A DNA stretch of 64,000 nucleotides from Psammoneis japonica (lineage: Eukaryota). A model generated the notes under the pieces. That model did no database searches, was not told where the DNA came from, and saw only the letters and a list, made by a program, of their open reading frames with translations. The position numbers and the translations under genes are program-made. This document shows, piece by piece, positions 881 through 45,999 of the stretch; the first letter of the stretch is position 1, and each line of letters opens with the position of its first letter. Where the stretch lies: positions 62,001-126,000 of the forward strand of contig QPGO01000192.1 in the NCBI GenBank assembly GCA_008632985.1, read 5' to 3'.

Positions 881-3800
881 TTACGCGTCGATTGGCACTC
901 TTGCACCACTAGCACCGGCTTGCATTGGTGACGCCGAACCATTTCTAAGAAACTCTTTGGCGATGATTGTAGGTACTGATTCGACAAGTCCACAACAAGA
1001 TTCTGCAATCTGCGCGAGAAATGAGCCTTCCATATCCAGAGCCGTTGCCAACACTTGATCAGTCTCGTCGTCACCGTCGTTGGGCCAAAGAAGTGCACGG
1101 GTCAAGGCCGCACATGCTAGCCGCTTTCGGCTGACTGTTCTGCCTTTTATCCCTAGCCGCTCTTTAAGCCAAGAGACGAGCCAAGGCGTTCCGGAGTGAG
1201 ACTCATCGAGGCGGAGCCAAGTCCGGAAACACGACCGAGCTGCAAACACAGGATCCACCCTTCCACGCTTGTGGGAACTGTCGAATTCGCCATACGTTTT
1301 GACACTCAGGACATGCTCATCCAAAAGCCAGAGAATGTGACGGTGGCCATCCTTTAAAGTGAAACCGTCTTGAGCTTCCTTGCCGTTTGAGGAGTTCAGC
1401 GTTGTACTAGAATCAGACGACAGCCGGTGGCCCAAAAGGAAGGCTTCAGCATCGTCCATGTTCATACCCGCTCCCTTGATTAACACATCGCAACACTTTA
1501 GCACCAATCCATCGCGCCCTCCAATTAAATTTGCTCCCGCTGACACGTTGCCAGACACGACGCAAAGCCTCATTATTGTCTTGCCATCAAATGCAAAAAC
1601 AGGCTCCTCCGCTTCCTTTCGTCCTGCCAGATAGCATGCAGCATCCAGTAAGGACTGGGAGGAAACGCGAGAATCATCTCGCCATGCTTCGTTTCTCTGT
1701 TTCAAAAGGAGTAGCGAAGAAATGAACAAATCGTAATCGAGCCCCCCGCGTTCTGGTTCCGCGATAAGCGCTCCTTGGAGATTTCGGACTTCCTCCAAAT
1801 GCTTCTGGACGCCATCACTGTCGTTAGCAACTATTGTCGAGTCTGCATGAAACCCTTCCATTTGACAGCCTGTATTGTCCAGGCAAGCAGTACAAAGCTG
1901 CTTTAAGAAGAGAGTAGGAACCGCTACAGTCGATCCTTGAGCCTCGATAGAGTGGCGAACGCATTTTAATATCCAAGAGCGCACTTCAGCCTCCCGTATT
2001 AGCGGGTAACGTCCATCGATTTCAATGAGAGACAGAGCCAGCTGCGTTTCGAGCTCAAGAGACGACCAATATCGATTACGAGATTCGTCGTCAATTAGGT
2101 TCAAGAGGATCTTGGCTGCGTCGTTCGATGACGAAAGTATTGTCTTTACGAGCACTGTACAAAGCATAAGGGGAGGTGGTGATGAACCTGATGTTTGCTC
2201 TGAGCGGGGGCTGCTTCTTAATTCGTCAGGGATTGCTTCATTTAGAAGTAGTAATGAGTTCAATAGGTAATCTCGACTTGTCGCCACTTGAAGCAAACAT
2301 CTCACTGGCCACAGAAGATCCATCGTTTTTTCGGCATCGCTGTCGCTCTCTTGGTACTTATGACCCATGACGGACTTTAAAACGACCTTGTCCCCTGAAA
2401 GCGAGCATGCGGCAGTGGCAGCAAGCATCAAACTGGTGCGTGCGGGATCGTATGCTTCGTTCCGTTCTAAGAAACCCTCTAGAGTCGTGGACATCATTAA
2501 CCCGCCCTTGACTAAGCATCCCACTGTCATATCTGCAAGCTGTGTTACTGTTGAAATCGCCCGTCTGGAGAGCTGGTGAGTCTGTGAATCTGCTTCTGCA
2601 TCCAGATCAAGAGGGGTGATACCATCTAGCAAGCCCTCAAGGTTCAAGCGAATGTCTGCAACGTCGATACTATCCATTGTTTGGCGTAAATTTCTCAGGG
2701 AGTCGACGTCTCCAAGCAAGTCCAAAGCAATGCTGGACGCGGTGAAATAGTCCTGATCTTGACAGAGCCATGACAAGACTTGATCGAACGGAGTAGATTG
2801 GCCGTTTTCAATAAATATTTTCCGAAGACTGAGCAAGAATAAATCACCAGGTTGCGACCCAAGTCGAACAGTCAATTCTGGAGCTGTATATTATGAGAAG
2901 TGTAGAAATCGCATGAAACAATAGGCAGCTTAGAAAAGCACTTAACAGATCGAAATGATAATCGCACCGCAGATAATCATTAGGATTCCGCACCTTGTCT
3001 CCCGAGCTTTGACCGATTCTCCACGGTGTTCTCCAGCTTCTCCCAACTAGCGCAGTGGCGGTAGAGGCGTCTAGATTTTTCTTTGTGAGAAAGAGACATG
3101 GCTCGGTGTCGCCGTGGTGGAATCGATTCATTCAGTATTCCACCAGCTTCGCCGTAGGGCAGACTCGATATGCTTTCTAAAGCGTGAACAAGAGTATTGT
3201 CTACACCAGAATCCTCGACTGGATGCCCCTCTTCCTCTTCGTGTATATTTTCTTCGATCATGTTGTCGTACTCAGATGTAAAAGGCAATCCCAGATTCAC
3301 TGATTTGTTCAGATTGTGGTCTTCTGACGCATCCTGTATTCCAACATGGGACGTGTGGAACGGATAGAGCGACAACATACCGCTACATGCGGGCATACCA
3401 CCTAGGTGATTCTTGTTGGCGTGGATTTCCGAAATGAACGCGCCACTTGATTCTGTAGTTCCATCCCAACAAACAAAGTAAAGCTGCTTCGTGGATCCAA
3501 CGAGTGACCAACCCTGTGCATTCAAAAGCAATTTGCACCAGAAAAAAATCAAAGGGCGAACCAAAGCAAAACAAGCGTTCGCAACCAAGCGTCTCTCCCC
3601 GGCAAACGTACCTGGCCAATGTGACAAAATAATGACTTTGAGTTTGGTTCCGCTCGAGGTAGCAATCTAGCAACATGACCTGGATGATGCATGGTTTGAA
3701 TTGTCAATGTCCGATCGTTGCTGCTTCCTTTTCCAGGAAAGCCCCGGGTCGAGCCGATGTAATTCGCTGCGAACTCAAGGGCACGCAGAGAGTAGAGAGC

Positions 3801-5984
3801 AATTGAGGCACTACCGCTGTCATCCATCTGGGTATCATACATGACAGCAATGCTTGGAGGGGTTGTATGTGTAGATGATACCGCAATGGGAGTAACACGT
3901 GAAGTGGAAGAACTGTATTCCTCGAGGATTGGAATCTCAATCGGTAACAGGTGAAACCGTCTCACGGTGCACAGCTGCTTTCGTTTGCGTTTGGCAGCGC
4001 CCCCGTCCACTCCCAAATCAGAGATAGGAGTCATCGTTAGCGTATCTTCCTCCTCTAGAAGCGTGCTGCTACTGTTTGTCTTTAGCAGTTGAGGGGACGT
4101 GAGGGAGGGAGCCTCTCCACATCTAGTGGTGACAATGTTGGACGAATCCACTCGAATGGCCACAGCCAAAGAGCCTGTGACAGTTTGGACTGGATCTCCA
4201 TCTCCCAGTACAAGAAGAAATGACATACCGCCCCAAACTACAGGAGAGAGCTTCTTGGGTACGAAGGGTAGGTACACAGTCCGAACCTCAGCATCATGCC
4301 TCAGGGAAAGAAAGGTGACAAATCCACCATTCTCCTTACGTTCTATCCACTTTGATGAAGATCTCTTAATAGATCTCACGGAGGTTGATGCTGGCTCCTT
4401 ATCCCACTCGCGGTTATTCATGGTCGGTTCTGGGTGTGCACCTTCGGCCCAATCTGGAGTTTCTTGAGCACTTTGCCGGGTGGTCGAGGGGCTAGAATCT
4501 TTCCACCAGTCGGCGCTCTCGCCACCTTCGCCTTTGCTTGTTGACTCCTCTAGAGAGAACTCTGTTGCCGTAGGTGTGTCACCTGTGGGCTGTGGTAGAG
4601 GTTCCTCTTCTTGAGGCGTGTCCCGAACCTGCTCCACCTCCGTCGTATTGCTCTGCTCTGTCCTCTTAGGTTTGTTTCGTCGCTTTCTTCGCCGTCGACG
4701 AATTCCTCGTCCACCGACTACTACATATTCAAAGACGTTTGCACATAATGAGGGCGAATTGTCCACGGTACGAAAGTGTGCAGATGACGGTTCCACATTT
4801 GAATCCCACACAGATCCATCCCACCAGTTCAGGTTCTTCGTGTGCTCCTTCTCATTCTCAACGTCCTGGATTCGCTCATCCTGTTCTTCCTGTGAAGATT
4901 CCTTCATATCCAATACGTTTTCTTGATGTTTCTTACTTTGCTTTTTCATTGGGACAGACAACGGAATGGTGGAAACTGGTTTGCTTAGCGGTAGTATGCT
5001 TGCCAACACTTGGTGGTACACATCTTCTCCCAAGAACAATGAAGCCAATGCACCCATCATTTGATCTTCTGGTTCTGACAGTGCTGTTTCAAAAAGAGGC
5101 GGTACATTGTAAAAGTAAACAGTTCCGTTGTTGGTGAGACAAACCAGGACAAGATCCGTCCGAATGTCGTCGGTGTAATTTTCCTGCGCGTCGGGTGATG
5201 GTGAATCCTCGATTATTGTGTCTCGTTCATCGGTTTGTGGCAAAGAAAACGACGATGATACAGTAGTAGAAGGCCCACCTAATCCCAACGACATCATGGA
5301 TACAACATCCAAAGCATCTACAGCCGTGTTGCTTGTAGAGGGTGGTGGACGCCGACACAATGCGATCGATACAAGTCCATCCTGCAACTTCACCTGTGCT
5401 CGCTTTGGTGTTTGTTTTTTCTTTGGAAAGAAGGCATACCATGGCTTATCGCTTGTTTCATTCGATGATTCCTCATGTTGCCTGCTATTCTGCTTATGGG
5501 TGGGGTCGTCGCTTTCGTGCTCATGTTGTTCACTCAAGGCAGCTCCTGGCCATCGCAACGTTCGGGTACTAATTCGCTCCAACAAGTTGTCATGATTGCT
5601 GCTGTTTTCGATATCATTATAACTGCTTTCACTTTCACTGTCGCTTTCTCCTTTAGACTGATATTTCATCAATTCCATTAACAGAACATCACCCACAGAA
5701 TCGTCACAAGTTTTAGATGAAAACAGAGATACAGTCAGAAAAAAGGTAGTTGAATTTTCGTCGTTGCCGGGACTTGTGTACGACAAGAAATTTTGAAACT
5801 CTTCCAGTACAACTTCTGCCGAAGTGCTACAAAGAGGAGCGCCGAGGGAAGGCTTGTTTTCGTTAGCTTGAGAAGCATCTATTGGTGCCTGCCATTGAGG
5901 ACGTTTCCACTCGTACTGCCACGGTCGCCGGGTCGTCATGGTCAAGGATTTGACAAGACTTGTATCCTTTGCGTCATGGCGCAT
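881..5984 (-). CDS. Large 3-exon protein of unknown function (~1630 aa); exons 5984-3612, 3513-2994, 2877-881
   Basis: Three long minus-strand ORFs join in frame through GT..AG introns 3611-3514 (CAG|GTACGT ... GCACAG|GGT) and 2993-2878 (G|GTGCGG ... TCCAG|AA). Start may instead be the MTTRRPW ATG at ~5939. Confidence 0.75.
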
Positions 5985-6000
5985 GTGGTTCGTTCATGGA

Positions 6001-6316
6001 CACTCTCCATCGTGAGTCTATGCGTCGACCGTTGTCGTGTGCGCGCACACCCGAAGTCTCCTCATGGACTCTCGCGGAAGTAAGACGGACGATGTACCAG
6101 GGTCGTATGTAGGCGATTTGTTACCGTGCCCTCCTGGTATGTTTCGTGTAGAATTCTCCGTAGAAAAGTTTTTTGCGTATGTAGAAACATACGGGGATTC
6201 CGGAGGCATCGTAACAAACCGTCCGTCTGACTTCCGCGAGAGTCTATGAGGAGACCTTCGTGTGCGTGCGAGCGCGCGCGAAGAACGGTCGACGCATAGA
6301 CTCACGATGGAGAGTG
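6001..6316. mobile_element. MITE, 316 bp, ~100-bp TIRs, 9-bp TSD
   Basis: Left end CACTCTCCATCGTGAGTCTATGCGTCGACCGTT is the exact reverse complement of 6284-6316; perfect direct repeat GTTCATGGA at 5992-6000 and 6317-6325. Confidence 0.92.
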
Positions 6317-6458
6317 GTTCATGGAGGCGCACCCCTGTGGTAGGGGAGAATATGGTGATGTCATGGTTACGTGGCAGTTTATATCTTATTCATTATATTT
6401 TTGTGTAAATGTCCTCACATTTATTTATGCATTTGTACACAAATGCTAACAGCAGCAG

Positions 6459-8610
6459 GAAAAATCCTGAACCACATTCTCCCCTGAAACTCCAACCACC
6501 AAAAACCGAGGGGTCGGAAGCGCACTTTTGGGAGCTCTTTTTCTCCGCACAAAAAACACGCGTCGACTCGACCATGACGACCTCCCATTCTTCGTCCCCC
6601 ACACCACCTGATGCATCCCCGCCTGCCATGTCTGATGCGGCAGTCCCTCCTGCATTGGCCGGTGCCGTCACACCCGCTGTCGTCACCCAAACACAGCCGA
6701 TTTGCCATCCGGAGGATTTGGGCTTCTGTTCGCCGGATCCTGTGCCTAAAACACAAACACAGCGCCGTGATTGGTCTGCTCCTGTCATTGCGTCCCCGGA
6801 GAAACTGGATTCTCGTTCGCATCGCCGTGTTGTGGAAGGTGCTGATGAGCCTTCTCTCAAACGGTCTGGGGTGCAGCTCCGAAACCAGGTCAAAAAACAA
6901 AAGCAACAAACCGACGTCAAGGTTCAGTGGGTGTGGCAGAGGAGCATCTATGACAGGAGGTGTGGTGATGACCTTTCTCAGGATGATTGTTCCTGAGCAG
7001 AACCTTGTCCATCTGGAGGTGATTGAGACTCACCCAGAGCCCAGCGGAACCAATCGGAGCCAACAACAAGTGTCAAGATGAACCGCAGCAACATGTGAAG
7101 GAGGACGCAGCTGATGGAGTGCGGGCAGAGAAGGTGCCGGCATGCAAAGTGGCAGCATGGCTGTCGACAAGGCACTGGTTTTGAAGGTCCAACAGTGACA
7201 AACACAGTGAGCATTTGCCAAAAGCACGTTGCTGTCTGCCTCCATTTTGGCAACATGCAAAAACAGCATGTTGCACATCACATGCAGAATTCAAACGGCG
7301 AGAGTGGCCTCTTGTGGAATTGCACACAATGACCTGGTCCTGGAAAACAGAGCAGTGTCCAAGTCACATGCACCATTTGAAACCTTGCCAAGTCGCCTGC
7401 AAACAAATGCCAGTTCGCTGACCTCTCCAACTTGAAACTAAAAAACTGTGAAAGCATGCCTGCCACCCAATTGTTGTCAGGTTTCTAATTTACAGAGAGC
7501 TGCATGATGTGTCTGTGTGTTCTAAAGATCAGACTGCACTCGAGAGCTGACCAAGAGGCACCATTCATGTCCATTGATGTGTCGTCCATCAGCAGGCCGT
7601 GGTTGCGTGGGTTTCCTGGTCCGCTGTCATCCGTCATCCATTGTGTTCCTTCCAAAGCAAAAACAACAACAGCATCAACAGCAACTGCAGCAGCAAGGGC
7701 AGGATCAACAGTGTCGGGCATGCCAGGGGGCCGAAATGCAGGTGCGGCGTTGGAATTCGTGACAGCATCTGTGGGAGGCGGTGGGGCGAGAATGAAAGAA
7801 GTGTGAGTTACAAGCATTTCGTTGTGGACGTCATTGGCAAAAGACAACAACAGTGTCAACAGCACCTGCGGCAGTGAGGGTGGGAGTGACAGCATCGGGC
7901 ATGCCAGGGGGCCGAAACGCAGGTGCGGCATTGGAATTCGTGATGGCATCTGTGGGAGGCGGTGGGGCGAGAATGAAAGAAGTGTGAGTTGTTGGCATTT
8001 CATTGTGGACGTTGTTGGCAAAACACAATGACAGCATCAACAGCACCTGCGGCAGCAAGGGCAGGAGCAACAGTGTCGGGCATGCTGGGGGGCCGAAACG
8101 CAGGTGCGGCGTTGGAATTCGTGACAGCATCTGTGGGAGGCGGTGGGGCGAGAATGAAAGAAGTGTGAGTCATTGGCATTTCATTGTGGACGTCATTGGC
8201 AAAATGCAATAACAGCATCAACAGTGCCTGCGGCAGCAAGGGCAGGAGCAACAGCATCGGGCATGCTGGGGGCCCGAAATGCAGGTGCGGCGTTGGAATT
8301 CGTGATGGCATCTGTGGGAGGCGGTGGAGCGTGCAAACAACAGTGTGAGTTTGTAGCATCTTATTTTGTACGTGTCACACCCACGAGAACCGGAACAATG
8401 ACATCACCTGTTGCATCAGTGTTGTTGGCAACGGTGTCAGCAGGATCGGCATCCTGGGAAGGCGATGGGGAAGAACCACGAGGCATCATCATGGTCGAGT
8501 CGACGAAACGCGTGTTTTTTGTGCGGAGAAAAAGAGCTCCCGAAAGGCGCTTCCGACCCCTCAGTTTTTGGTGGTTAGAGTTTTAGGGGAGCTGTGGAAC
8601 AGGAATTTTC
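6459..8610. mobile_element. Degenerate long-TIR DNA transposon (Mutator-like organisation), non-autonomous
   Basis: ~130-bp imperfect inverted repeats (6459-~6590 vs ~8480-8610) starting GAAAA(A/T)TCCTG; each TIR ends in an inward-facing ...GTCGACTCGACCATG; no TSD found. Confidence 0.75.
7650..8330. repeat. Tandem repeat, 181-bp unit, ~3.7 copies
   Basis: GTGGGAGGCGGTGG recurs at 7771, 7952, 8133 and 8314. Confidence 0.92.
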
Positions 8611-9030
8611 ACTTGTGGAACATGCACATCCGTGTGGACATTGACATTAAAACTCAACGCACGGCGAAGCCGTGCACGCACAACCACGCACACACACAGC
8701 TCCCCCACCACAGGGGTGATGGAGGCGTGGTCTGCAGCAGAGGTGAGATGCAAGATGCCCGAAGCATCACAAGCAGCAGGCGGAGGCCAGACGTTGTTTC
8801 CGCGGCAAAGTCGGTCTCGCTCTACCAGCCACACACGCGCAGCCAGGATTTCAGCCACCTCCAACAATCAACAGCTCCGGCCATTTGACATCTGCTTTGC
8901 ACCGACATGGAATCTCCTGCAGAAGTGCATGACCTTGCATGTGGTGCACAAGCATTTTGATGATCCTTGTGTTTGTAGAGTGCAAATGAGCTGATTGCAA
9001 GTGCACCGCCTCTGCAGGGGATGGTGAGAG

Positions 9031-9592
9031 AGTCCAGCGAGAAAGTTTGCATGACCCCCCAGGAACGCAAGGGAAACAAGTTGTGTGGTCAGCAGAAATG
9101 CAGTGAAAATGTTTGCACCCCCAAGGAACCCCCGCGAAAAGTTTGCATTCCCCCAGGAACGAACCCCCGTGAAAGTTTGCATTCCCCCAGGAACGCAGTC
9201 GCGGAGGAACCACCGAGAAAGTTTGCAGCCCCTGCCCAGGAATGCAGTCGCAAGGAAAACTTTGTGCAGCAACCCCCAACCCCGCCCAAAAATTTTCATC
9301 CCCCAAGGAACTCCGGTGAGAAGTTTGCAGCCCCCCAGGAACGCATTCGCGAGAAATGGCATCAGGGTCACAGTGGAAAACTTTGTGTCCCCCCAGGAAC
9401 CCCGTGAGAAAGTTGGTGTCCCTCGAGGAACCCCGGCGAGAAAGTTTGTAGCCCCCCATGAATGCAACCGCAAGAAGTTTGTCATCAGGAATCACAGTGG
9501 CACTCTCCATCGTCCGTCACGATGGAGAGTGTCACAATGGAGAATTTGGCATCCCCCCGCCCAGGACCCCCGCGAGAAAGTTGGCATCCCGT
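9031..9592. repeat. Array of degenerate ~30-bp units (CGCGAGAAAGTTTGCA...CCCCCAGGAAC), probably transposon subterminal repeats
   Basis: More than a dozen same-orientation copies of GAAAGTTTGCA / CCCCCAGGAAC. Confidence 0.75.
9501..9531. mobile_element. 31-bp minimal derivative of the 6001-6316 MITE family
   Basis: CACTCTCCATCGT-CCGTC-ACGATGGAGAGTG; flanks TCACAGTGG / TCACAATGG form a 9-bp TSD with one mismatch. Confidence 0.8.
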
Positions 9593-10825
9593 GAATGGCA
9601 CTGCTGGCAACCACCAGACTACAGAGCTGAATGTTGCATGTGGGATTCAATGGATGTGATGCAACTGTGTGCATGTGCTCTTTAATTGGTGTCTAAAAAT
9701 CTTGTTCAAAAATGAGAATGACCCTCACCAAAAATTCGACGCGAAAAACGACACGGCCGTGGCGACAAAAGCTGCTCGAGTTGATCCCACAGTTTGACAT
9801 GCTAGAAAACCAAGGCATGAATTGATGCATCTTGTCAATTGGTTGTTGCACTTGCACAGTGCACATGACAAAAACAATCCCCTGCAGAAACCCATGCAAA
9901 TTCTGCACAAAAATGAAATCTCCAATCAACGACCCTGTCACAAACGGTGACCGGCAATGCTGCACAAACAACCTCAACAATCAACCAACATGTCACAAGG
10001 TTTGACAGACAATGAATGAGATGACCACACATCAACAAAAGTGCCACACCACACAAACGACAATGACGGTGAGCGGGTCATTGTCGACACAGCAGATTTG
10101 TGTGACTCTGATGGACACAGATTGAGAATTTCATGCTGTGGGGTAAAAGTGAAGACACACGGGCAGACAAAAAAAGCACGACCTTCAGTCATGCATGTCA
10201 GAGCATGCTTGGAAGAGAATGTCCAGGGAGAGCAAAGTGACAAAAGAAGCAAAAGCGGCTTTGCAAGAACAGCTCAAAAAGTGGTCGATTTTTGGTCCAA
10301 AAAAGACGGGGGGTTGGCTGCCCCGCAACAGACAACCATTGCAATCTCTGTGTGAAACAAGGAAAGAAACCTGATTTGGTGTTCCTCCAGCAAATTTTCT
10401 GGAGGGTGGCATTTTTCTCTGCATGCGGTTCTGTGGGGCATGAGACTCCTCATGAAAGAAAGGAACAACCTTGAGCAAATCATGCTGCAGTTGCTAAGAA
10501 TTGACAAAGTGCAACAGAAAAGTGTTGTTGTGGCAATCAACAGGAATCTAGAAATTGTGAGGGTTGCTCTGCACCACCCACCAATTGGGCAACAGTGGTG
10601 GTCTTCACCAAATGGTCCCAAAGCTTGTTTTTTGGTGACAGCATGGCCAGAATCACTCAGTCCCCTTGAGCTGACACCAGCCCCAGTTGGGTCAGTTCAA
10701 CATGTCCTTTGCCTTCTTCATTGCCGCCCTGTTCCAGGTGCAATCCAAAATGTCAAATCGGGGTGGGCAAAACCCCTCCATTTTGGAGAGGACAATCCCG
10801 GCTTGTCCATTTTGGACAGGCCAAC

Positions 10826-13800
10826 TCACCACAGCATGTGGCAAGTCAGTTCTCGGAGCTTTGGTCCAGGCACAAGTTTGGTCAAGACATCCACTAGATT
10901 TGTGCGTCTGTCCTCCCAAGCAATCTGCACAACACCTGCAGTGCCTGTGCCTCACGCGTCCAGTGACAAGCAATGACACTGTGCTTCTTTTTGAAAGTTG
11001 ACTCTGGTCATGTCAAGTTCTTGAACACAGCCTCATTGTCACAGAAAACATTGGCAGGTCCCTTGACTGGGGTTCCTCCCATCATTCAAAGCTTGTGATG
11101 CAAGGCTTCAATTTGCTCCACCGCAGCTTTCATTGCAACAAATTCCAGCCAAACATGGATGACTCCATGGCATTCTGCCATTTGGAGCACCACAGAATTG
11201 GCGCCCATTGCATGAAGATGATGATCCCCATGTGGGATTGTTGCATCACACAACAACCAGCATGATCTGCATCAAAGAAGCGTGTGGCAGTGACACCATT
11301 GCTCCATGCCTCAGGGACATCCCTCGGGACAGCTTCAGCTGCCCCAGGACAATGTTCCAACCAGCCACACTTCTGAAAGGGAGATGGGTCAAAGGTGGGC
11401 TCAGTGTCATCAAACACCATGTCACAAACTTTGCATGTGCTTTCAGATGCGCAAAGATGTGAAGCACCTCATCCAAGTGACTGACCCTTGGTGCCGCCAG
11501 GTGCAAGGACATGAGGGACATGGCAACTGTCACATCAACCCGGCCCAATTCCACCATCCAGCACAAGACACTGGTGAGCCCCTCATGATGACTTGCCCTC
11601 TGGGCATCCAATTCAGAGAAATGTCAAGTTCTGGTCTGTGTCCCGAGCTCAATGGAGTTGAAGCCTTTGACCTGAGGCTTCAGCCTGCTTGGCCAAGCTT
11701 GAATTCAACATTGGCAGTTGCCCTCTTGACATGCAAGTCTGAGGACAATGCCCAATGTGTCTCACCATCTGAGTCAGACAGCTGGCATTTGCAGATCTGT
11801 GTGCCAAGGTGCTCTTCCAGTTCCTTGACACTTCCTTCCTCAAGCCCACAATGAGATGCCATGTGGTCCACAAACATCTGAGGGTCATGAGAGACTGCTG
11901 ACAAGTCATCAATGCAAACAAGTGCACATTCCCAGCACTTGAAGCCATCCAGCTTGACCGCCTTGTGCATCCACACATTGGGGTCTCCCTTGCTAGATTG
12001 GAAGCCCACCTTGCATGGGGTTGCCACCATGTGGTCTTGAAACCCAGCACCTGAGCTGTTGAGTCCATGTGGCACTGGCTGCTCCTCATTCTGCTTTCCA
12101 AATTCCAGACCAGCAGCAGCACAGCAGCATTCCTTGGTCTTGGCATTTAAATGCACATTCTGGACATCTGCTGCACACATGACATCCAAATTGTTCAAAG
12201 CCACGATCGCAAAGGCTGTCCTGACACCATCATGTGTCACAATGCCAGAGCAAGTTGACTCTTTGGGCGGCTCCATCTGATGACCTCCAGCTGCACAGCA
12301 GGCTTTCCTGGTCAAGTCGGTCTTGATGTCAAATGCCATGTGCTGGCACTTGATGTGTTTGAACCTGACTGGGATGGAGTCATCATCTGAGAATTTGAGC
12401 GCAGGGATGAGGTTCTTCATCTCTTTCTTGACTGCCTTCATCCAAAGGTCTGGCCTGTTTTCTGGTCAATGGCCAGAGCTTGCTGCACAGTCTTTGGGAG
12501 TTCAATCCCAAACTTGAGGGTGCACTTCCAGCACCTGGTCTTGACCTTCATGACCATCCTGGCATGTCGACATGACACGACATGCACCCACCAGTTAAAG
12601 GCTGGTTCACTTGCAATCTTGTTTGAGACCACACATTCAGCCACCTGTGTGGGAAAGGATTCCTTCACCTTGGCCAGTGGCATCCAGTCCATGGTGCTGT
12701 CCTTCTGCTCCACTTGCAGGTCCCATCCAAAAGTCATTCGTCTGGGCCTGCGAGTGCTGTTGAAGGTGGCGAAGCAGCCATCATCCATCTTGATGGCTCG
12801 TGCATCACTTCAATGACCTGTTCTTGTCACCTTGACAATTTGGCAAGTCCTGTCTTTGTCATCAATCTGAGAAAAGATGTTCTCAGCCACAGTGTTGGCT
12901 GCAAAGGCATCTGTGGATCCATCCGGGAACTCCGCTTCACACAACCTGGAATCCAACATGGGATTGGAACTCCCAGCCGCAATCGGCACTCTGTCTGAAT
13001 CTTGTTTGCAACTCTTGACCTTCACATGTTTTAGCTCCCCACCCCTTGGAAGCATTGTCTCAGCTGTGATGCATTCATCCATCTCCTTGGGTGTCTGTTC
13101 ATCTGCCTTGATGCAAGACAAGTCCGGTTCAAATGGTTCTCCATTCTCACGCCATCCTCAAAGAGATCGTCAGGAGGACTTGGGAGCATGGCATCATCCC
13201 TGTCCTTGTCCTCACCCAGCTTGAGGGAGAGCACCGCGTCCACAAGCTCCAAGCAATTCCGCTTTGCGTTGATGTTTAAGAGTCATCCTTGGCAAGAGCC
13301 CACACATCCTTGTGAATGATGGGTCCACCTGACTCAGGCAGGATTGCAAACGCCATGTCATCTGCACAGCTTTCTGCAACATCTGACCAGCACCCGATGC
13401 ACTTCCTCCTTTCAAAGGGAAATTCTGCCACAGGCATCATAAAGTGCACTGGCTGGTGCCAGTCAAAGAGGGCATGAGCTGAGACGTCTGGCGTCAAACC
13501 CATGACATCCTCTTTTCTGGGACCCTGCCATGTGTTTCTGGATGATCAGAGGCATTGAGCCTCCCAGCTGCCATTGCCCAGCACTTGGCACAGCAGGACC
13601 AACAGTGTCTGGGCGCATTCGTGCGCCGCACCACAACTCTGACCTTCCTTTTGAGTTCTCGAACAGAAGCTTTGACCAAGTTCTGCCATGGACTGCAAGG
13701 TCCAGTTGTGCCTTGCTTGATCTTATGCTCCTTCACAATTTCCTCAGTGTGCCCATCAGGGGAATTCCTGCATCATGGATGAATGACATCATTGCATCTG

Positions 13801-16795
13801 GATGATCCACCTTTGAGTTCCAGGGGCAAAAGTGATCACAACCTTTTTCATTCATGAAAATTGATCCACCAAAATGTCCCCGTGAGAATTGACTTGACCT
13901 TAGAAAACATCTGGTCAGTGTAAAACCTGTCCTTCACACCAGGGAACTCAAGCCAAGGAGCCTTCTTTTGCACCTTTGTTTTGGACAGTGCGCAGACGTT
14001 CCTGACTCCAGCTTCAGTGATCACCTTCAAGGTGTTTTTTGTGGCAGTTGGGCCCATGCCCCATCTCCTGGATAAAATCTCGGGAGTCAGTGTGGACTTG
14101 CTCTTAGAAGTGGGTGGTGCAAACATGCACACACGCTCTTTGCCATCATTGTGCTCATCATTTTTGCATTTGTTGTGTGGCCCGCCCCCTTTCACATCAA
14201 GGTGGGAAACAGTTGCCACAGATGCCATGCGTTTGTGCAATGCAGAGCCGTTGCCAGCAGCGGCGATCTCTTCCGGGCAGTCAAACCCATCACTGTGCAG
14301 CCGGATTGCAGAAAAGCATTGTGCCTCATTCGTCCACCCATGCTCCCCCTTTGGGCCAAGCCCCAAGGATTGAGATGAACCAGCAATGGTGTTGAACTTT
14401 GACTCAACAACATCTTCCTGCTGGGGAAACAGGTCTGATTGTGGGCTCCATTGCATGGTTGATGTCAGCTCTAGATGTGGCAGTTCCTCCAGGTCTTTGT
14501 CAGTGGGTTTGCAGTTTCAAAACCAGACATGATCCCTTTCAGTCAGAGTGGGTTTGGACATTTGAAGTCTGGGAATGACATGGAGTGGGAGCTTGTGCTC
14601 TCAAATTGTTTTGGGGTGTCATCCACAGTTGGGTCATTGGCGCGCAATTGGCTGGGACACATCAGCAAATTTTTTGCATGGTCCCCAAAACACATGTGGC
14701 CTCATGTCTGATCAGCAGGTGTGGTTGACCTGTGGATGGGTCAGTCCAAGCAGTGGCAACTGATTGGATTGGGACATTGCGGGGCTGGTTTGTTGCACTT
14801 GTCTGAGCATGGTCACATGGCAACAGTGTGACTTGGGTCCAAGAAAGGTGCACAGGCTGAGCCAGCAATGCATGTGTCCATGTGCAAGTCAAGCTCACTG
14901 CACAATGTCTCATAAAAAGATCCAGCAGCAACTGGAGCTGAGGCACACATCAGCGCGCTGGCAAAGGACATTGATGTGAAACCAATGGGAGTGGTGCCGA
15001 CAGCATTGCCAGATGAGTCAGATGAGTTTGGGCTGTCATTGTCATCAGATTGCACTGCAAGAGTCCTCTTGCTCATTGGTGCAACCAACCACTCCTGTCT
15101 GGATTGCTCCTTCAAAGGTTTGCATTCAATCATGCCCTGCTCAACCAAAGGTTTGGGCTTGTGGACCACCCTTCTGAACAGCTGCCTTCACACCCTGCTC
15201 CTTGGGTGCAGGTTTGCCATCAGCAACAGGCTTGTCAGGCTCAGGAGGGTTGCTGGTGGAGACCTTGCTGACTTTCCTGGTGGCACTGTCCTCCTCCTCG
15301 GTGTCAAGGGCTGCAGCCTTGCACTTCCATTTGGCCTTCTCCTTCTTCTTTTTTTGCAAAGCTCGTTGACCTTAGCATGTTCTTCTGGCTCAAAGGCAAG
15401 CCATTCCTCCTTGGGATGGTGACCAGCCCCAATCCTGGGCTTGTCCTGCTTCTTTTTTCTTTGAGGGTTGCCCCTCTTCTTGGGGTCCATTTCGCATTCG
15501 TTCCAAACTGCACCAATGTGGTGCACTGTCACTCCAAGTGGTTCTTGGAATTTTCCGCCAAGGTCTTCATGTGCTTCTGGCAGAGCTCAAAGCTAGAGAG
15601 CTTGGCGTCATCACCATCCACAACTCTCTTGCCAGTTTCCAATCGGGGGTCAGCAATCCCCTTCAGGAAGTCGGAGACCTTCTTGGTCTCAGCCACCAGC
15701 TCTCCCATGTCAAGGAGGTCATCATGAGCCCTCTGGCCTCTGGTGTTGTTGGACACACCAGCTGAAGGTGCAGCAACCTTGTCCAGTGCACTTTGTGGCA
15801 GCCATCTGAGCATGCATGCAATTCTTCCAAGCAGCAGTGGCAGAAAGGCGTCGCGACCATTCTGGGCACAGTTGAGTGGTTTGACAAAGGCCCACCTGGG
15901 TCCTTTAACAATGAGCTCCTTAAGCCCATCATGTGTGCATTGATCATCTGTCATGCATGCTTGTCTGTTGTGCTTGGCCGTTGCAATCAAGTCCTTGTCA
16001 ATGGCATCACAGTCAGCTGCACAGATCTCATCAGTGACACCCGACACTTCGCGAACGATGCACAGCAGCAGCACCCCAGTCACAGCATTGTGGTGGTGAT
16101 GCAACTCTGTCTGGAACAATTCCTCCCACTTGACAAAGTCATGAACCTGGGAAAGAGGTGTGGCCTTGGGAGTGTCGTCCTGCTGCTCCTGGTTGTCCTC
16201 CTGCTCCTGCCTGCGAACATCGTCAAACTCAGCAAGACGGTCCGTCCAAGTCTTGACAATGTGCCCCCAGCAAACATTTGGGCCTGCAGCTTTCCCTCCC
16301 CCCTTGCTTTCCTGTGGCACAACCACGCATGCAGGGCCTTGAACTTCCCAACCGAGAGACATGGGAAATTGACGTCATCATTGTTGGAACTGTCCTTCCT
16401 GAGTTCTTTGATCATTTTTCATCAATCTCAGATGACAGCGGCACTTGGTGCAAATCGGCGGTGGCAGTGAAACCTTGGGTGCTGCACAAACCCTGGTGCA
16501 TTTCCTGCACAGTTTTAAAGAGTTGCCTCTGGAGGGCCACAGCTGGAGAGAGACAGATCGCGGAAGCCAAGCAAATCCTTGGTGGATGGGACAACCCCCC
16601 ACTTGCTCGTGCAGAGACGGGGGAGAGGCACGAGGCACAGACCACGGCTGCGCCGAAATTTCTGGCTGTCACGTTGTGTTGTGTAGTCCACCTGCATGTG
16701 TTGTGTGAAGGGCCAGACGAAGTGCAAACTCTAGAGCAGATTCCACTCTAGCAGCTAGAGTCCTGCCCAACGCGAGCACAACATCACGTCGAACA
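10826..16795 (-). mobile_element. Ty1/Copia (CoDi-type) LTR retrotransposon, heavily mutated gag-PR-IN-RT-RNaseH
   Basis: Minus-strand order: gag-like (16362-15529); PR 'ELDLHMDTCIAG' (~14890); IN 'YTDQMFSKVKS' and 'GPCSPWQNL..RELKR' (13930-13640); RT 'DVQNVHLNA' and 'VCIDDL' (CIDD at 11905-11916); RNaseH 'DADHAG..SHMGII..ILWCSKWQN' and 'KKKHSVIACH..RE'; stop at 10826-10828. No LTR pair identified; the 16795 boundary is tentative. Confidence 0.92.
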
Positions 16796-16897
16796 AGCTT
16801 CATCTGGAAACTGGCGCCGCGCGAAGCGGTTCCGTCTGGACTTCGTCAGGGTGCTGCAAAAAACACTTTTTGGAAAACATAAAAAAAAACGCACACC

Positions 16898-18270
16898 ATG
16901 ACGAGCGCCGTCGACGCGTCGTCTTGCAGCTCCACTGAAATGACGCTTGCAGCTCTCACACATGACACACATGATCCAAGAGTGTTCAAGTGACTGTTGA
17001 ACTTCCAAGATTGTTGAGAGATGGCACCGTCATCCAATGGTGCACAGTTGAATGGGGTCACCCGATGCGACGCACCAAATGCTGTTCCATCGTACAATCG
17101 CACCAAAGAGAGGCAAACAATGCTGATTGATGCCACAGACACCTTGTCAATCGTTGCTGTGCTCAAGTTGGAATGTGATGGAGGCGCAACACCACGCCAT
17201 GTGGCTGGTTGTGACACGAGTTGGCGCACCGTTTTCAAGAAGGTTCAAAGTTTTGTTGAGACGGATGCCGCCAAGCAGAAGCTGGAGAAAAAACACTGGA
17301 GTGAGATGCCGCGATGGGAGAAAAACACACATGAGCAACAACTTTGTATTTTGATGGATCAAAAGGCTGCAATTGAAGTCAAGCTTGCTCCAGTTGACAA
17401 CGGAGCTACGGCATTGCCGCGAGCAGTTTCACCCATGCCGGGTGCCACTTCGGAACAAACCACACGTGTTGGAGGAAGTCAATTGGCTAGAGAGTCGCCA
17501 CAAGAACCTTCTTTGAATGACACTCCACCCAATGAAAAGCTCACATCACCCACTTCATCGGAATCATCCAGAAATTTTTTTAGAGGCACTGCGAACAAGA
17601 AGCGTCGCATCACACCCCCAGCGCCAGATTCCGAAGAGCAGGCAAGTGCCGCCGCCGATGATGGTGTGGTGCAAGTTTCAATCTGAAGGCCACATCACTT
17701 CTTTCTCCAGAAGAGGAGCGCATGGCACCAGCAAAAAAGGCTGAGAATGTGAAAAAATCAACCGTCAAACCGCACCCAGTTGGAACGAATGCTGCCACGC
17801 TGTGTCAACAGGCAGACAGACACGTCATTGAATCGATCCACGGATTGTTGAGGAAAGTGAGGACTGCCATTGACACTTCACATTGTCCAGATCAGCTTGA
17901 TGATGAGCCTTGTGTGCACACTGCATGCTTGGTGCTGAATGAAATTGAACCAACCGACATTGACAGTGGACGATGCAATCCCGCTGACCTTCCGGCAAAG
18001 AAACCTGAGTTGTTGGCACTGACGCATTCGAAGCATGACACAAAGCCAGTCATGACAGCATTCAAGACAGTCACTGGGAGTGAAAGCCAGTGCAATGACT
18101 CTTTTCATTTTCACCCACCAGTTGCGGGTGAAGACGGTTTGGTTTCGCCTGCCATCGAAGACTGCATTGAATCTTTCAAGAAGAGTCATGCGAAACCGTC
18201 CAAAACGCCTGGAGACTGCTCTGAAGTTGTCGAAGAGCTGCGGCTAGACTGTGTGACTAGTCTGTGCTAG
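16898..18270 (+). pseudogene. Element ORF A, unknown protein, probable intron 17664-17710
   Basis: ATG 16898 is in frame with ORF 17021..17686 across two TGA codons (likely former CGA); a 47-nt GT..TTTCTCCAG intron joins it in frame to ORF 17722..18270. Confidence 0.55.
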
Positions 18271-18339
18271 CCACTGCTTTACGCACACCACATGTGAAGA
18301 ACATTTCAACAAACAAAGCATCACACCACTGACTTAGAA

Positions 18340-19806
18340 TCAAAACCATGCTGGAGACTGAGAAAATCCCGTCAATCCATGCACAGTGGATTGATTGGAC
18401 TGAACAGAGAAAGCTGCTGAACTCTCTCGGGATGCAGGCGAGGGTGGCACAGCCGCAGCATGATCAGCAGTTTGCCGCTTGCGTGTGATCGCATGCTTGC
18501 GAGCAAATTTAGATCGGACACATTCATTTGCGGATGGGATGTCTTGGTCAATCTCTGCTTTCAGTCTTGCTTCGAATTTGGCAAATTCGCCAGCTCTCTC
18601 CGACTGTCGTTTCGCCTTAAACTCCTCCTTTCGAGACTCCGGCCATTCTGGATCCATCTTGCGCATTGCTTGCCTCACCAAAACAATTCTGTGGACTTTT
18701 GGGGGCTTGTTCAAACCCCCTTTGACAGGTTTCGGGTGCGCCGCCACAATTCCTTGCCACTCCGACGGCTCAAGCTTTGCTGCCAGATGTGCTGGCTCCT
18801 TGTCAAGCTCTGGCACTGTGCAGACAAATTGCTTCATCAAGAAGCTGCAGTCCTCTGAGCAGCATCGCTTCAGCTCATCCTTGAGTGCTGTGTCCTTCTT
18901 GCCTGCTTCTGGCGGCATCAGTGAAAGATCAACTCCGTCTTCACCTGTCTCTGGACGTGCACAATCAGATGGATCGCCATTTGCAATGAATTTCTCAAAG
19001 TGGTCCACGAATCGTGCAGGCATGCCATCGTCCAGCATTTCTCCACACCCAAGAGCATGGAGACATCTGAGGAGAATGAACTCCTGATTGCATGCAAGCT
19101 TTGTTAAAGTTGACCGATTCAACAGCTCTAATGAATCAAACTTTTTCGTCGGGCAAAGGGTGATCAGGATGGTGTGAAAAAACTTGAAGATTTTCTCGAG
19201 CGCTTCTTTCATTTCGCTCGTCCAATCATCCTGCGAGCAAGTGGGTAGAGCCATTGAAACAACCGCAACATCACCATCCTCTTTGCATCCAGCAAAGGTC
19301 AGTGAAGAATAATCCTGAATCCTTGATGACGCGATGTGAGTGTTGTCTCCGAAGAGTTGGTCCAGTGTTTCCTTGTTTCAGATGAAATGATGCACCGGAT
19401 CCATCTTGGAATTGAAAGGAGTGATTTTGTGACAGCTGGGTTGTTGAATTGGTTTGACAGTGCCATTGTGACGTTCAAAACGGACTGCATGTATTGCACG
19501 TTCCGTTGTTTGGCTGTTGCATGCCCCGCAGCACAGCGTTGCGTCACAACCTCTCAGTGCGACAGTGCTGCCGAAGCAACTGATGCATGTTGCACATTTG
19601 TCAGCACAACCCAGCTCATGATGGCTTTCAATTGAAGCACATGTTGCATTCTCACAACATGCACACGTCTTCTCTGACGAATAAAGCGATCCGAGCTCAC
19701 ATTCGACAGTCACCGCGTTTGACCGAGACGAACCACCGCACACTCTCCGAGCTCTTTTCTTTGCTGACAGTGACATCCTGTGAAAAATTTGAAGATGCAG
19801 CATCAC
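18340..19806 (-). pseudogene. Element ORF B, possible transposase remnant
   Basis: ORFs 19378..19806 and 18340..19254 are one frame interrupted only by TGA at 19378-19380 (likely CGA); contains 'NSQTTERAI', reminiscent of the S/T-x-x-x-ER motif around the catalytic Glu of DDE transposases. Confidence 0.5.
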
Positions 19807-20028
19807 TTGAGTGTAGAAGAAGAAACGGTTCCTTTAGTATGACTGTGATAAGCCTTGTAGTTATTGTGAAATAAACGTCCGCAAGACGGCTCTCGTCATG
19901 GCGTGCGTTTTTTTGATGTTTTTCAAAAAGTGCTTTTTTGCTTTTTGCAGTACCCCGACGAAGTCCAGACGGAACCGCTGCGCGCGGCGCGCGCTAGTTT
20001 CCAGATGAAGCTGATAGGCCTTATCATA

Positions 20029-20334
20029 CTACAAATTGCAAGACAATTGCGCGATTCACGTGCCCGAAGGTGGAATATCGTTGCCCGAAGCAACATTCTC
20101 CCTTCGCGCAGATGTCATTTCTACGTATGATGTGGTATCAAAATTTTCATTTTGGTCGTCTAAATCGTCCCAGTCATTTCATCAAATGACCTTGTGGTAC
20201 TCTCCTACGTGATCTACGCAAATCGGAGCTTCGGGCTGGCTGGTACATTTTCTACAGGCTCTACGTGCGCGAAGCTCGAATTCAACAATCACCCTTCGGG
20301 CACGTGAATCGCGCAATTGTCTTGCAATTCGTAG
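20029..20334. mobile_element. MITE with ~42-bp TIRs and TA TSD (Tc1/mariner-like)
   Basis: CTAC(A/G)AATTGCAAGACAATTGCGCGATTCACGTGCCCGAAGG at the left end and inverted at the right end; TA at 20027-28 and 20335-36. Confidence 0.8.
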
Positions 20335-20421
20335 TACGACGTGTTGATTGAACAGCCAGAACAAAAAGCAAAGCGAGTCGTCCACAACGTTGGGCAACAA
20401 AAAAATTCTCCCATCAAAACC

Positions 20422-23400
20422 ATGAATGAAAATTTTGGCCCAGTCACGCCACAACGGGCCAACGGTCGGCCGATAAACGCGGTCAGTGGACACAAGCGAA
20501 ATGCTGAAGCAGCGATACTCGATGATGCGCAGCTGTGTGCTTCTCCCGGTGCTCAGCCTCGCAGTCCTGGCATGACGGATCTCATTCATTATGAAAGAAA
20601 GAGATCACAAGACGAAGCAACGAACGCTGCTCCTCATTTTGAGTCCGACAGTAGTAGTGCTCGTCGTGAATCCGGGTTTTCGGGGGGAGTTGACGAAGCG
20701 TCGAGCGTTCAAAGAGACAGTGTCGATGGGGTCGCGTTGACTGAGGAATTTTCGACGCCGCTTGTTGGGAAACACGGCCACTATTGGTGGACGAGGTACC
20801 GTGCAGTATTGAACGCGGATAATTGGAGCAAACTCGCAAATGAGTTGAAGGTCACGCCCCATATGAGGGACGTCGTGGTGCCGGAGCCACCTCCTTTTAT
20901 TGAAGAGAGAGCTACAATCGACGAGGTTCCGTTGCCGGGGGCAGCTGTGAATGAAAGTTTTGACGAAGATGCGCTGCTTACTACTGACAATCTCAGTTCT
21001 GACGACAAAGTTTTCTACGATTCTCTACCGAATGAAGAGATGAAGAATTACTACCTGCGCGGCAAGCTGCGAGCGACGATTGAAGAGCGAAAAGCTGAGA
21101 TTGCAGAGCGAAAAGCTGAGATTGCAGAGCGAAAAGCTGAGATTGCAGAGCATCAAAGGAAGGTTGCAGAGCGAAAAGCTGAGCGAGAGTTGCACCAAAG
21201 GAAGATTGAGAAGCACCTCGTTGAAATCACGGTGGTAGCAACTAGTGTTGAGACGTCGCTACTTGCATTGTCATCCCTTTCACAAGCCGAAGGGACAGTG
21301 GCCAGAGATACAAAGGATGCAGAAGAAACACTCAAGAAACGGAGAATGAAGGAAAGTCAAGCTGAGGAGTTTGTGAAGGATGCTGACCCAATCGTACAGG
21401 AGCCAGCATCGCTCTCCGAAACGTACAATTCGGTTTTGGAAAATGAAAGAGAGTTCTCAAGCACTTTTGACCGAGAATCATTGAAGCACTTTGATGACGA
21501 AAAACAAAACCCGCTGCTTCGACTGAGCAATGCTTATGCTGCGGCTGTAAAGTCGACTGCGAATTTCACGAAACGACAGGAGTTACATGGCGATTTGGAA
21601 GGATACAAGATGCGCATTGAGAAGACTGTCAACAAGCTGCAGACTGAATTCAAAAAAGCAAGAGAAAATTCTGAACATGATCCTTCCTTCGAAGCGGATC
21701 TCGTGTTCCCTGGTCCAACCAGCCAAGAAGTTCATGGCGTCCAGCCAGTTTTCAAAGCGCTCCTCGAAGCCATCGGTGACTGTTGTCAAGTGGCATATGA
21801 TGGTAAGACGCATCCGTCCTCGCCACCGAACATTGGTGTATCGGAACAAAAGGAGTTGTATGGAAATGAGAAGCGACGAGGGCGTCGCTGTGATATTGCG
21901 GTTTGGAAACGTGGGAGACACGTTGTTGCACTGCTGGATGGTTTCATGGAGGTGACGTTCGAGATCAAGCCGGGACAGCGCATTGACAAGACAGTGCTAG
22001 ACATGCTGTGCGAAGGAAAATTCCAGGGTCTCAGCCACGTAGCTAAGGCGCTACTACATTGCTTGCGCTTCGCGGATGGTGCAGGTGTTCCGTCGCATGC
22101 AACGTCCATAACTGGTTCGCTAAGTCACGTCGAGATCATCCAACTCTGTGTAGTTGATCCAGGGAAACCAACCTCTCGCGTCGAGTTACGCTCATCCGGA
22201 CCATTGCCACTTTTGCCAAAAGATTGTTTTCGCAAATGGTTTGATTCAGACAATTCGCGGCACTCAGAGGCCGTTGACACCATGGCGAACCTTTTGTACG
22301 GAAAGGACGACAACGGCATGGACGAGAAAGGTATTCCACTTGGCATCAAGGGTCTCTATACAATGATGATGTGCCCTCGTCGTGAGCTCATTGGTCCCAA
22401 TTGGGAAAAAGTCTCGGGTTCGCTTGGCGAACTACTTGGTGTCGGTACGTTTGGCATGGTTTTTGCTGTCAACGGAAGTGATGATGCTGTAGTCAAATTG
22501 TCCAAGACCTCCCTGTCTCGCTACATCAAACGGGAAGCCGCAATTTTGAAGCTGTTATCGTCATGTGACGATAGACCAAATAGTGTAGGGCTACCTCACT
22601 TCATTGCATGTGGGCTAATGGAGGTAAATGTTGGGGGCGTGGCGTTTCAGTTACCCGCACTTGCAATGCAACCACGGTGTCAAAACATCTACAGTGTGTG
22701 CTCCGGTTGGTCAGACGAAAAGCGCTTTAGTGTCCTGAAGAAAATCCATAATGGCATTTTGAGTGCTCTGTGCTTTATCCACAAGCAGCATAATATTTGC
22801 CACCGTGACGTCAATGACACAAACATACTTTTGCGTTATCACACGGAGACTGATGAATGGAGTGCTGTACTGATTGACTTCAGCGTTGCCGGCCCGATGT
22901 ACGAGAATGTCAAGGGCTTTGTAGGCACTCCGACGTTCACTCATCGTGAAGTGCATAAGAATTCCGAATGGATATCTGCCCCACAGTATGACGATACAAA
23001 CCTTGGTTTCACATTAGTTGTGATTCTTGAGGGTGGCGTCGTTCCTTGGAAGGGTTTGAGTGACAAGGGCCCACAGAAGGGCACTGATGTGTATGATAAG
23101 CGAATTGAACAGGCGAACCTTTGTTTACGGGAGAATGTACAGAACAAGAAACTGGACGCCGATCTAGCGAAGTGCATCAAGGATCTGTTCCTGAAGGATA
23201 AGGAAAAGTTTCGAAGTGCTTGTGGCTGCAAAAAAACACAATGCAGAGGCGGCCGTTGCAGTTGCAGTAATACCGAAAACGGTAGCTCCATTTTGTGCGC
23301 ATGTTGTTATGACAAGCAAAAGGCGGCTTTCTCCTGTTTAGGCAAGCACAATGGTCCGCAGAAGGGGAGCGTCGACGACGTCAAGTTTGATGCCCCTATC

Positions 23401-35931: not shown

Positions 35932-35979
35932 TCATTTCGGGAGCAATGAATTTTCACATGCCATAAATCGGTGTAGCTA

Positions 35980-36330
35980 CGTGTAAACCTAGGAATTTTC
36001 GACGATTGAGTCATCAAAATCTTATGTGCTTTGTATCGATGCTTTGTATTGCACGTAGTAAGCTAGATAAATTACATATGTCCTACTTATATCTTCATGT
36101 TTCTTCTTCTCTGACAGCAACTAGAAACGAGTTGCATACCTGAGGTTGAACGGAGTCCAAGGAATACAGTATGGATAGTATTCTGGATCTCTAAGAAGTG
36201 ATGCCAGCACTTTCTCGCTCGGTCCAAACCATGTTTGTTAGAAAGGCCAAAATGACATGAAGTGCCGTATGTCTGTCCCCTTTGCCAAGTGCATTCTGAT
36301 ATTGTGAATCACTTCAGTGTTTTCATAATT
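35980..36330 (-). pseudogene. Duplicated 3' end and 3' flank of the 41627-42339 gene
   Basis: Co-linear high similarity with 41412-41762 (e.g. CGTGTAAACC.AGGAA..TTCGACGATTGA; AAGAAGTGATGCCAGCACTTTCTCG). Confidence 0.85.
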
Positions 36331-45990: not shown

Positions 45991-45999
45991 CCCATGGAA

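Follow-up and report, generated by a model that had tools for sequence, protein, structure and literature searches.

The locus and its TpA-depleted blocks

The window analyzed here is a 64-kb (64,000-nucleotide) stretch of the genome of the diatom Psammoneis japonica (assembly GCA_008632985.1, contig QPGO01000192.1, positions 62,001 to 126,000). Between its positions 9800 and 16600, on the minus strand, lies a dead, hypermutated Copia-type long terminal repeat (LTR) retrotransposon, depleted in CpG and left with just 23 TpA dinucleotides in 6.8 kb. The scarcity of TpA extends well beyond this element. Over the whole window TpA occurs at 0.34 of expectation, with the shortfall concentrated in five repeat blocks that together make up 32.5 kb, and in which the observed-to-expected ratio (obs/exp) of TpA drops to 0.04–0.11. 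The TpA sites that survive in these blocks are held predominantly in one sequence context, YTAR (Y, pyrimidine; R, purine), and it is this context dependence that offers a view of the process by which the others were lost.

The frame that would encode the reverse transcriptase (RT) and RNase H of the element occupies 10822–12465 on the minus strand. Its read-through translation, written with X at stops, matches 67 Copia-type RT proteins of like length, as well as 117 polyproteins that are longer. PF07727 is present in nearly all of these homologues, E values reach 4e-115, and where a source is named, in a few cases, it is the diatom Epithemia or Fragilaria. In a tblastn search the 117 polyproteins span 10500–14700, again on the minus strand. 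By homology, the element at 9800–16600 is of the Copia (Ty1/copia, RVT_2) type, with integrase upstream of RT and with relatives in the diatom lineage. The frame bears no tyrosine in 548 residues, along with 6.2% Cys and 5.8% His, whereas the median homologue (n = 184) has 3.8% Tyr, 1.4% Cys and 2.5% His, and the lowest tyrosine content among them is 2.7%. It is interrupted by 15 TGA and one TAG, and the tyrosine of its YxDD motif now reads Cys. By codon logic, a change of TpA to TpG or CpA is incapable of producing an in-frame stop, so the TGA stops arose by other changes, for example from CGA or TGG. Pfam found nothing in the depleted blocks, whether among nine open reading frames (ORFs), all 149 ORFs of at least 110 residues, or the six read-through frames of 9000–17499; on the hypermutated RT it stayed silent, RVT_2 included, even at E values up to 1, where sequence search returned 1e-104 to 1e-115. 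An LTR pair for the Copia element was not found by self-BLAST, sensitive pairwise BLAST or repeat search.

The Copia element forms the CpG-poor core of a composite block at 6601–19800, whose outer parts, 6601–9700 and 16601–19800, have normal CpG. Blocks depleted in both TpA and CpG lie at 32101–33550 (3 TpA), 37451–40450 (11 TpA) and 56551–60500 (10 TpA), and the largest TpA-depleted block, 45001–55900, holds 24 TpA in 10.9 kb. Counted in bins of 500 bp, TpA number 0–6 in the blocks and mostly 10–30 outside, the undepleted parts carrying ~42 TpA per kb, while CA and TG taken together rise from ~70 per bin outside to ~115 within. The deficit in the deep blocks is limited, among all dinucleotides, to TA (obs/exp 0.04) and CG (0.16); in the remaining depleted DNA, TA stands at 0.11. 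CA and TG reach 1.86 and 1.76 in the deep blocks (1.55–1.86 over the depleted DNA), and AA, AT and the other dinucleotides in the blocks are as in normal DNA, AA being at 1.18 compared to 1.15. GC-biased conversion was rejected as a cause, as it would lack this TpA specificity.

The blocks are sharply bounded. At the left edge of 6601–19800, dense TpA ends at 6447 and the next TpA comes at 6747, and at block borders in general the TpA density switches over a distance of at most a few hundred bases. An island of ordinary composition at 55950–56540, with ~40 TpA in ~600 bp between two hypermutated blocks, shows how sharply the TpA process is confined. CpG content, on the other hand, divides the TpA-depleted DNA into two classes: a CpG-normal class (CpG obs/exp 0.66) at 6601–9700, 16601–19800 and 45101–46000, and a CpG-lost class (0.16) at 10001–16500, 32201–33500, 37901–40000, 46001–55500 and 56801–60000. 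The TpA process and CpG loss thus choose overlapping but different targets, and the loss of CpG, presumably driven by methylation, is a process separate from that of TpA. CpG methylation alone was likewise rejected as an explanation, given the three TpA-depleted parts that keep normal CpG.

Sequence context of the surviving TpA sites

The baseline, chosen to approximate ancestral frequencies, was a set of 80 intact related Copia loci taken from metagenomes, with 21,202 TpA among them and TpA obs/exp of 0.38–0.91. In these relatives 18.3% of TpA lie in YTAR and 31.9% in RTAY, and 38.6% have TARR on either strand. In 9800–16600, by comparison, all 23 survivors have TARR on at least one strand (binomial p = 3e-10), 17 are YTAR (p = 9e-9) and none is RTAY. 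An earlier note on this DNA had listed 21 surviving sites, 8 of them TAGA and 8 TAAA in and near the Copia element and 5 TAGA at a distance (46260, 48721, 51069 and 54306 in the largest block, 58575 in that at 56551–60500), and each carries the tetramer assigned to it. The contexts that it had found missing from 9800–16600, namely GTAC, ATAT and ATAC/GTAT, are all forms of the absent RTAY, and its description of the survivors as TAGA, TAAA or TAAG on at least one strand is in line with the two purines that follow TA in all 23.

The same bias pervades the rest of the depleted DNA. The five blocks hold 114 TpA, divided as 68 YTAR, 22 RTAR, 17 YTAY and 7 RTAY where the baseline predicts 20.9, 21.5, 35.3 and 36.4, respectively (chi-square p = 5e-30); taken by itself, YTAR at 68 of 114 departs from its 18% baseline share with p = 1e-22. 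The undepleted regions of the window provide the same contrast, with their 1198 TpA falling into 206 YTAR, 303 RTAR, 334 YTAY and 355 RTAY. Each of seven sub-blocks is biased individually, at 45–74% YTAR, in keeping with the earlier claim that the bias is not peculiar to the Copia element. At the level of hexamers, GCTAGA (8 occurrences), TCTAAA (7), GTTAAA (6), TTTAAA (5) and TCTAGA (3) are enriched 7- to 11-fold, and 85 of 136 hexamer classes, in which 70 survivors would be expected, are empty. Context-independent survival, once ancestral frequencies are accounted for, was the outcome named in advance as fatal to the idea of a context preference; measured against the 80 relatives, the dependence on context is strong. 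That the sites merely inherit an ancestral composition in which TpA always lay mainly in YTAR or TARA is scarcely credible. No support for such an origin was found in these comparisons, the relatives show 18% YTAR and 32% RTAY, and those of them with lower TpA have fewer YTAR, a trend in the opposite direction (Spearman +0.37, p = 9e-4). In the Copia element itself, moreover, 25 conserved tyrosine codons (TAY, selected as described below) now read Cys, His or Tyr, and 24 of them have lost the tyrosine.

The motif can be resolved further by treating each TpA as two half-sites, with the bases 3′ of the A taken from each strand of every TpA and pooled. At +1, survivors are enriched for A (1.85) and G (1.69) and impoverished in C (0.54) and T (0.30). 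Survivors also favor A at +2, by 2.0-fold (p = 4e-17), with T reduced to 0.5-fold; at +3, a weak preference for A persists (1.4-fold, p = 0.0035), and at +4 the survivor half-sites show no preference. As tetramers, TAAA (3.55×) and TAGA (3.31×) lead, followed by TAGC (1.98×) and TAAG (1.56×), while TAGG (0.31×; 3 half-sites versus 9.5 expected), TATC and TATA (0.16×) and TACT (0.06×) are scarce. G at +1 protects only in combination with A or C at +2. The earlier generalization, that TA followed by a purine pair is a poor substrate, is therefore correct in that a purine at +1 protects, and too broad in that TAGG is a good target and TAAG is protected more weakly. The protective half-site is a purine followed by A, required on both strands and graded in its effect, and not any pair of purines.

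A model in which the two strands contribute independently accounts well for the distribution of survivors with purines at +1 on both strands, on one or on neither (RR/RY/YY observed 68/39/7, expected 66.9/41.3/5.9). In this additive per-strand model p = 3e-24 for the +1 term and 6e-14 for a +2 term added to it. Deeper depletion is accompanied by a purer motif, in the manner of a dose-response. Of the 54 TpA that the deepest blocks contain (22.6 kb, 2.4 per kb), 42 are YTAR, 12 are mixed and none is RTAY, and 51 have TAAA, TAGA or TAAG on a strand; in the CpG-normal blocks, with 6.1 TpA per kb, YTAR accounts for 22 of 44. The context bias is symmetric across strands and is also seen in repeats bounded by terminal inverted repeats (TIRs) that have no gene detectable by Pfam or by Copia homologues. 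The Copia frame, killed by its 16 stops and stripped of the YxDD tyrosine, upholds the earlier contention that selection on codons is not the cause.

Direction of change on both strands

The direction in which TpA changed can be read from the Copia element. In the tblastn alignments of the 117 polyproteins, a tyrosine position was considered conserved if 8 or more homologues cover it and 60% or more of these have Tyr. There are 29 such positions, which now read Cys (13), His (11), Tyr (1) or another residue (4). TAY has thus turned into TGY or CAY about equally often, so the change is from TpA to TpG or CpA, and both strands were affected. The sole surviving conserved tyrosine codon, a TAC at 13920–13922 on the minus strand (Y in 68 of 93 homologue high-scoring segment pairs), is embedded in the plus-strand context gtgTAaaac, a TAAA. 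In every block CA is about equal to TG. Strand-coordinated runs of CA versus TG are absent from the deep blocks, and the CpG-normal blocks have a weak excess at lags of 1 and 2 (z = 2.9 and 2.3). Because TpA is its own complement, A-centered and T-centered chemistries are inseparable by such counts.

On either side of the Copia element lie repeats with inverted termini. That at 6459–8610 has inverted repeats of ~120 bp and an internal 181-bp tandem repeat (7657–8373), and a second element, at 16796–20012, has arms of ~115 bp and normal CpG; the former is TpA-depleted, as is the latter up to ~19800. Within these elements the paired arms differ by TA versus TG and by TA versus CA, with TG versus TA at two places in 16796–20012. 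TpA is dense again from 19814, ahead of the right arm. The public sequencing data comprise three runs of one sample and one study, and contigs of two runs were aligned to 6001–20500 at 80% likeness. Contig depth over 6459–8610 is 3800–8700, versus ~50–60 for single pieces, and one contig skips 16800–20364. The 1487 differences among copies are dominated by transitions (A>G 285, G>A 295, C>T 300, T>C 244), each transversion numbering 31–49. A 458-bp contig from the same sample, 99% alike, has CA at 11572–11573 in place of the TG of the window, as would be expected had two copies or alleles independently converted one ancestral TpA (or CpG).

Proteins in public data carry what may be the same imprint. 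Among the best 150 of 2225 matches in a library of 50% representatives, six proteins, originating from Logan, ENA and JGI assemblies, have 0–0.4% Tyr and raised Cys and His. P0437, a cluster member from a public metagenome, is a Copia polyprotein of 1377 residues with no tyrosine and an intact ORF. At conserved tyrosine columns the seven proteins together read Cys 46 times, His 28, Tyr once and other residues 23 times. P0437 and P0421 are 95% alike, with P0421 having His where P0437 has Cys at three conserved-tyrosine positions, two of which we take to match conserved tyrosine motifs; such Cys versus His differences imply that TAY persisted at these sites until the copies diverged. P0437 on its own shows a strong sense-strand bias, with 22 Cys to 2 His at conserved tyrosine columns as compared to 13 to 11 in the Copia element of the window.

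A sense-strand bias of this kind is what would follow from editing of retrotransposon transcripts by an ADAR- or ADAT-like enzyme before reverse transcription, and a U at −1 is a hallmark of ADAT- and ADAR-type activity (PMC9600606; 10.64898/2026.01.13.699255). In the window, however, the strands are equally affected, as judged by the Cys to His counts and by CA and TG, and the deep blocks are free of strand runs. Inverted-repeat elements in which neither Pfam nor Copia homologues detect an RT are depleted as well, and the +1 purine favored by fungal Tad2/Tad3 (PMC9600606) is the protected context here. Editing at the RNA level is thus a highly improbable source of the pattern.

Neighboring genes and repeats

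The host ORFs of the window are long, unbroken and not hypermutated, and encode a DUF3605 protein, a protein kinase, a sulfatase and a class-C G-protein-coupled receptor. The best matches of the receptor ORF are 71–73% identical, and its named relatives are all diatoms (Cyclotella, Amphora, Corethron, Thalassiosira, Seminavis and Bacillariaceae). Bacillariophyta is also the most frequent phylum in an Atlas search, in which the kinase ORF gave no informative taxon. At 29123–31522, on the plus strand, an 800-residue ORF contains a 297-bp unit repeated in tandem seven to eight times (91–94% alike); it is without a Pfam match, and its TpA is normal.

A probable context-dependent mutator and its alternatives

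The best reading of these observations, and probably the correct one, is that a context-dependent, TpA-specific A:T-to-G:C mutator acted on integrated DNA, and that the survivors are mostly ancestral escapees. Direction, TpA specificity, action on both strands, sharp edges and the context rule are all shown by the data above: transitions from TpA to TpG or CpA struck blocks of transposons and repeats, on the two strands alike, and left almost no TpA. Viewed per strand, the A of TA is lost fastest before a pyrimidine (TACT, TATC, TATA, TATT) and slowest before a purine followed by A (TAAA and TAGA; TAGC and TAAG less so). Either strand can destroy the site, and only doubly protected sites (YTAR), exemplified by TCTAGA, TTTAAA and GCTAGA, persist in the deepest blocks. 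The TpA that remain would be mostly ancestral, spared by a neighbor-dependent net mutation rate. The agent would act on DNA rather than RNA, and may be an enzyme that modifies bases; the simplest candidate is an adenine deaminase, of the sort suggested for Bigelowiella natans, and the context rule would reflect the substrate preference of the mutator enzyme itself.

Several observations weigh against this reading or parts of it. Neither an enzyme nor a lesion is apparent within the 64-kb window. The ATAG/CTAT class has 2 survivors where a per-strand model with +1 only predicts, by arithmetic, ~11. If an A before a pyrimidine were struck on its own strand, YTAY would yield mostly YTGY, and the ratio (YTGY+RCAR)/(YCAY+RTGR) would be ~1.27 for a 4:1 ratio of rates. 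The observed ratio is 1.14 in the Copia element versus 0.98 in its intact relatives (369 versus 325, p about 0.05 by arithmetic), 1.33 for the deep blocks taken together and 1.41 for the CpG-normal ones, yet it is already 1.24 in the normal DNA of the window. The tyrosine codons read 7 Cys to 4 His after a pyrimidine and 6 to 7 after a purine, which is not significant, and the strand-specific form of the rule is thus weakly supported. The overall 46 to 28 split of Cys and His in the public proteins leans on one protein (22 to 2). As for targeting, a direct repeat of ~360 bp (35971–36328 and 41403–41762, 87% alike) flanks the hypermutated block 37451–40450 and is itself undepleted, at a TA obs/exp of 0.8, so local repetition is insufficient to attract the process. 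Lastly, at 6747/6748 each of the 7 contigs that represent other copies has G, and the TpA there may be new.

This last point would favor an account in which surviving TpA at large are new, generated by later C-to-T or G-to-A changes at CpA or TpG, and owe their context to their creation. Y..R flanks, however, surround 24% of the 7112 CpA/TpG sites in the blocks, as opposed to 60% YTAR among the survivors (p = 8e-16), and flanks of the TARA type surround 25% of CpA/TpG sites, as opposed to 79 of 114 survivors (p = 2e-23). Furthermore, about 10 of the 12 Copia survivors with homologue cover encode the residue class that the homologues share (Leu CTA/TTA, Ser-Lys, Tyr), as ancestral sites would. 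Even an equilibrium between creation and destruction would leave a bias that reports context-dependent destruction. A recent origin of the survivors is accordingly quite improbable.

Survivor counts, nonetheless, measure net rates only. A mutator blind to context beyond TpA could leave the same pattern if repair depended on context, for instance through excision of hypoxanthine, or if TARA/YTAR sites were shielded by a modification or a bound protein. Protection at the level of the duplex is also expected to produce mixed-site products that are barely asymmetric, as is the case. Against this, no modification or binding site is indicated by the sequence, and the protected set is degenerate (TAAA, TAGA, TAGC, TAAG) and graded, not one discrete motif. 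Repair or protection as the source of the context is considered unlikely, and the context-dependent mutator is the reading retained below.

The window represents the end state of TpA hypermutation in diatom transposons. What is new is the quantitative motif, a rapid loss of TAY and a protection of TARA, with a reach to +2 or +3. One may go further and propose, tentatively and as something short of probable, that it records a diatom genome defense analogous to the repeat-induced point mutation (RIP) of fungi, of opposite chemistry: a DNA adenine deaminase or equivalent, recognizing T-A-pyrimidine and blocked by T-A-R-A, matching neither ADAR nor ADAT2/3, with the same or a convergent system in Rhizaria (B. 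natans) and possibly widespread among stramenopiles, alveolates and Rhizaria (SAR). Candidate enzymes can be tested concretely against the motif, which already conflicts with Tad2/Tad3 editing at +1. Adenine base editors were evolved from a tRNA enzyme, and a natural counterpart able to convert A in DNA would, if real, be of interest to base editing. For annotation, the consequences are practical: elements of this kind lose every tyrosine and gain no stop from the TpA process, domain-based transposon annotation (Pfam) would miss them, and gene callers may report long tyrosine-free "proteins", of which the 1377-residue polyprotein is an example.

Comparison with known systems

RIP in ascomycete fungi converts CpA to TpA, thereby enriching TpA and creating stop codons. 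The process seen here resembles it in its logic, with dinucleotide-specific transitions on the two strands inactivating mobile or repeated DNA within sharp borders, and differs in that TpA is erased, no in-frame stop is made by the TpA change itself, and some local repeats are untouched. RIP was thus rejected, its direction being opposite to the TpA loss and CpA enrichment of the blocks. Comparison with the spectra of TadA, ADAR and polymerase eta, which the earlier note had suggested, gave a divided outcome, with ADAR and polymerase eta disagreeing and TadA agreeing loosely. Errors of polymerase eta are A-to-G at WA (W, A or T). AA should then fall along with TA, yet it is undepleted in the blocks, and a polymerase eta signature was rejected. 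The native site of TadA is U-A-C in the anticodon loop of tRNA, its activity on DNA having been engineered; that site fits loosely with the quick loss of TAC and TAT here, though TadA is a tRNA enzyme. ADAR favors a 5′ U, accepts a 5′ A, prefers a 3′ G, and works on one RNA strand at a time. To our knowledge, ADARs occur in animals only. Clusters of A-to-G changes in repeats and a favored 5′ U are shared with ADAR, whereas undepleted AA, protected TAG and the lack of strand runs in the deep blocks are not. Fungi are reported to lack ADARs (PMC4817773).

A further comparison is with the A-to-I editing of mRNA in the sexual stage of fungi, carried out by Tad2/Tad3 (ADAT2/3; PMC11087585), which needs U at −1, prefers A or G at +1, +3 and +4, disfavors A at +2, and prefers hairpin loops (PMC9600606). 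The process in the window is likewise A-to-G, with T at −1 required, as AA, CA and GA are not lost, and the A at +2 that Tad2/Tad3 disfavors is protective here. Unlike in this RNA editor, however, a purine at +1 is protected (1.7- to 1.85-fold, versus 0.3- to 0.54-fold for C and T).

The nearest precedent is found in the chlorarachniophyte B. natans, in which TpA hypermutation affects integrated giant-virus and virophage DNA (Mettrop et al., 10.64898/2026.01.13.699255); in a search of the literature, TpA-specific A:T-to-G:C hypermutation was reported in this preprint only, and nothing was found for diatoms. According to the preprint, 231 of 302 de novo mutations fell in two integrated viral regions, and all but one of these 231 were A-to-G or T-to-C, every such change being on TpA (10.64898/2026.01.13.699255). 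The authors propose an ADAT2-like deaminase, and the main text is silent on flanking context (10.64898/2026.01.13.699255). The two systems are alike in that TpA alone is struck, with TpG and CpA as products on either strand, and in their confinement to foreign or mobile segments, where the long-term trace is low TpA with high CpA and TpG; the TpA-poor gene set of B. natans is, by the same account, enriched in RT and DDE domains. They differ in host and target, being set here in a diatom, a stramenopile, and directed at Copia and TIR-bounded repeats. They also differ in extent: the depletion described here, read from sequence alone, is near saturation at obs/exp of 0.04–0.11, compared to 0.45 in the virus region of B. 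natans.

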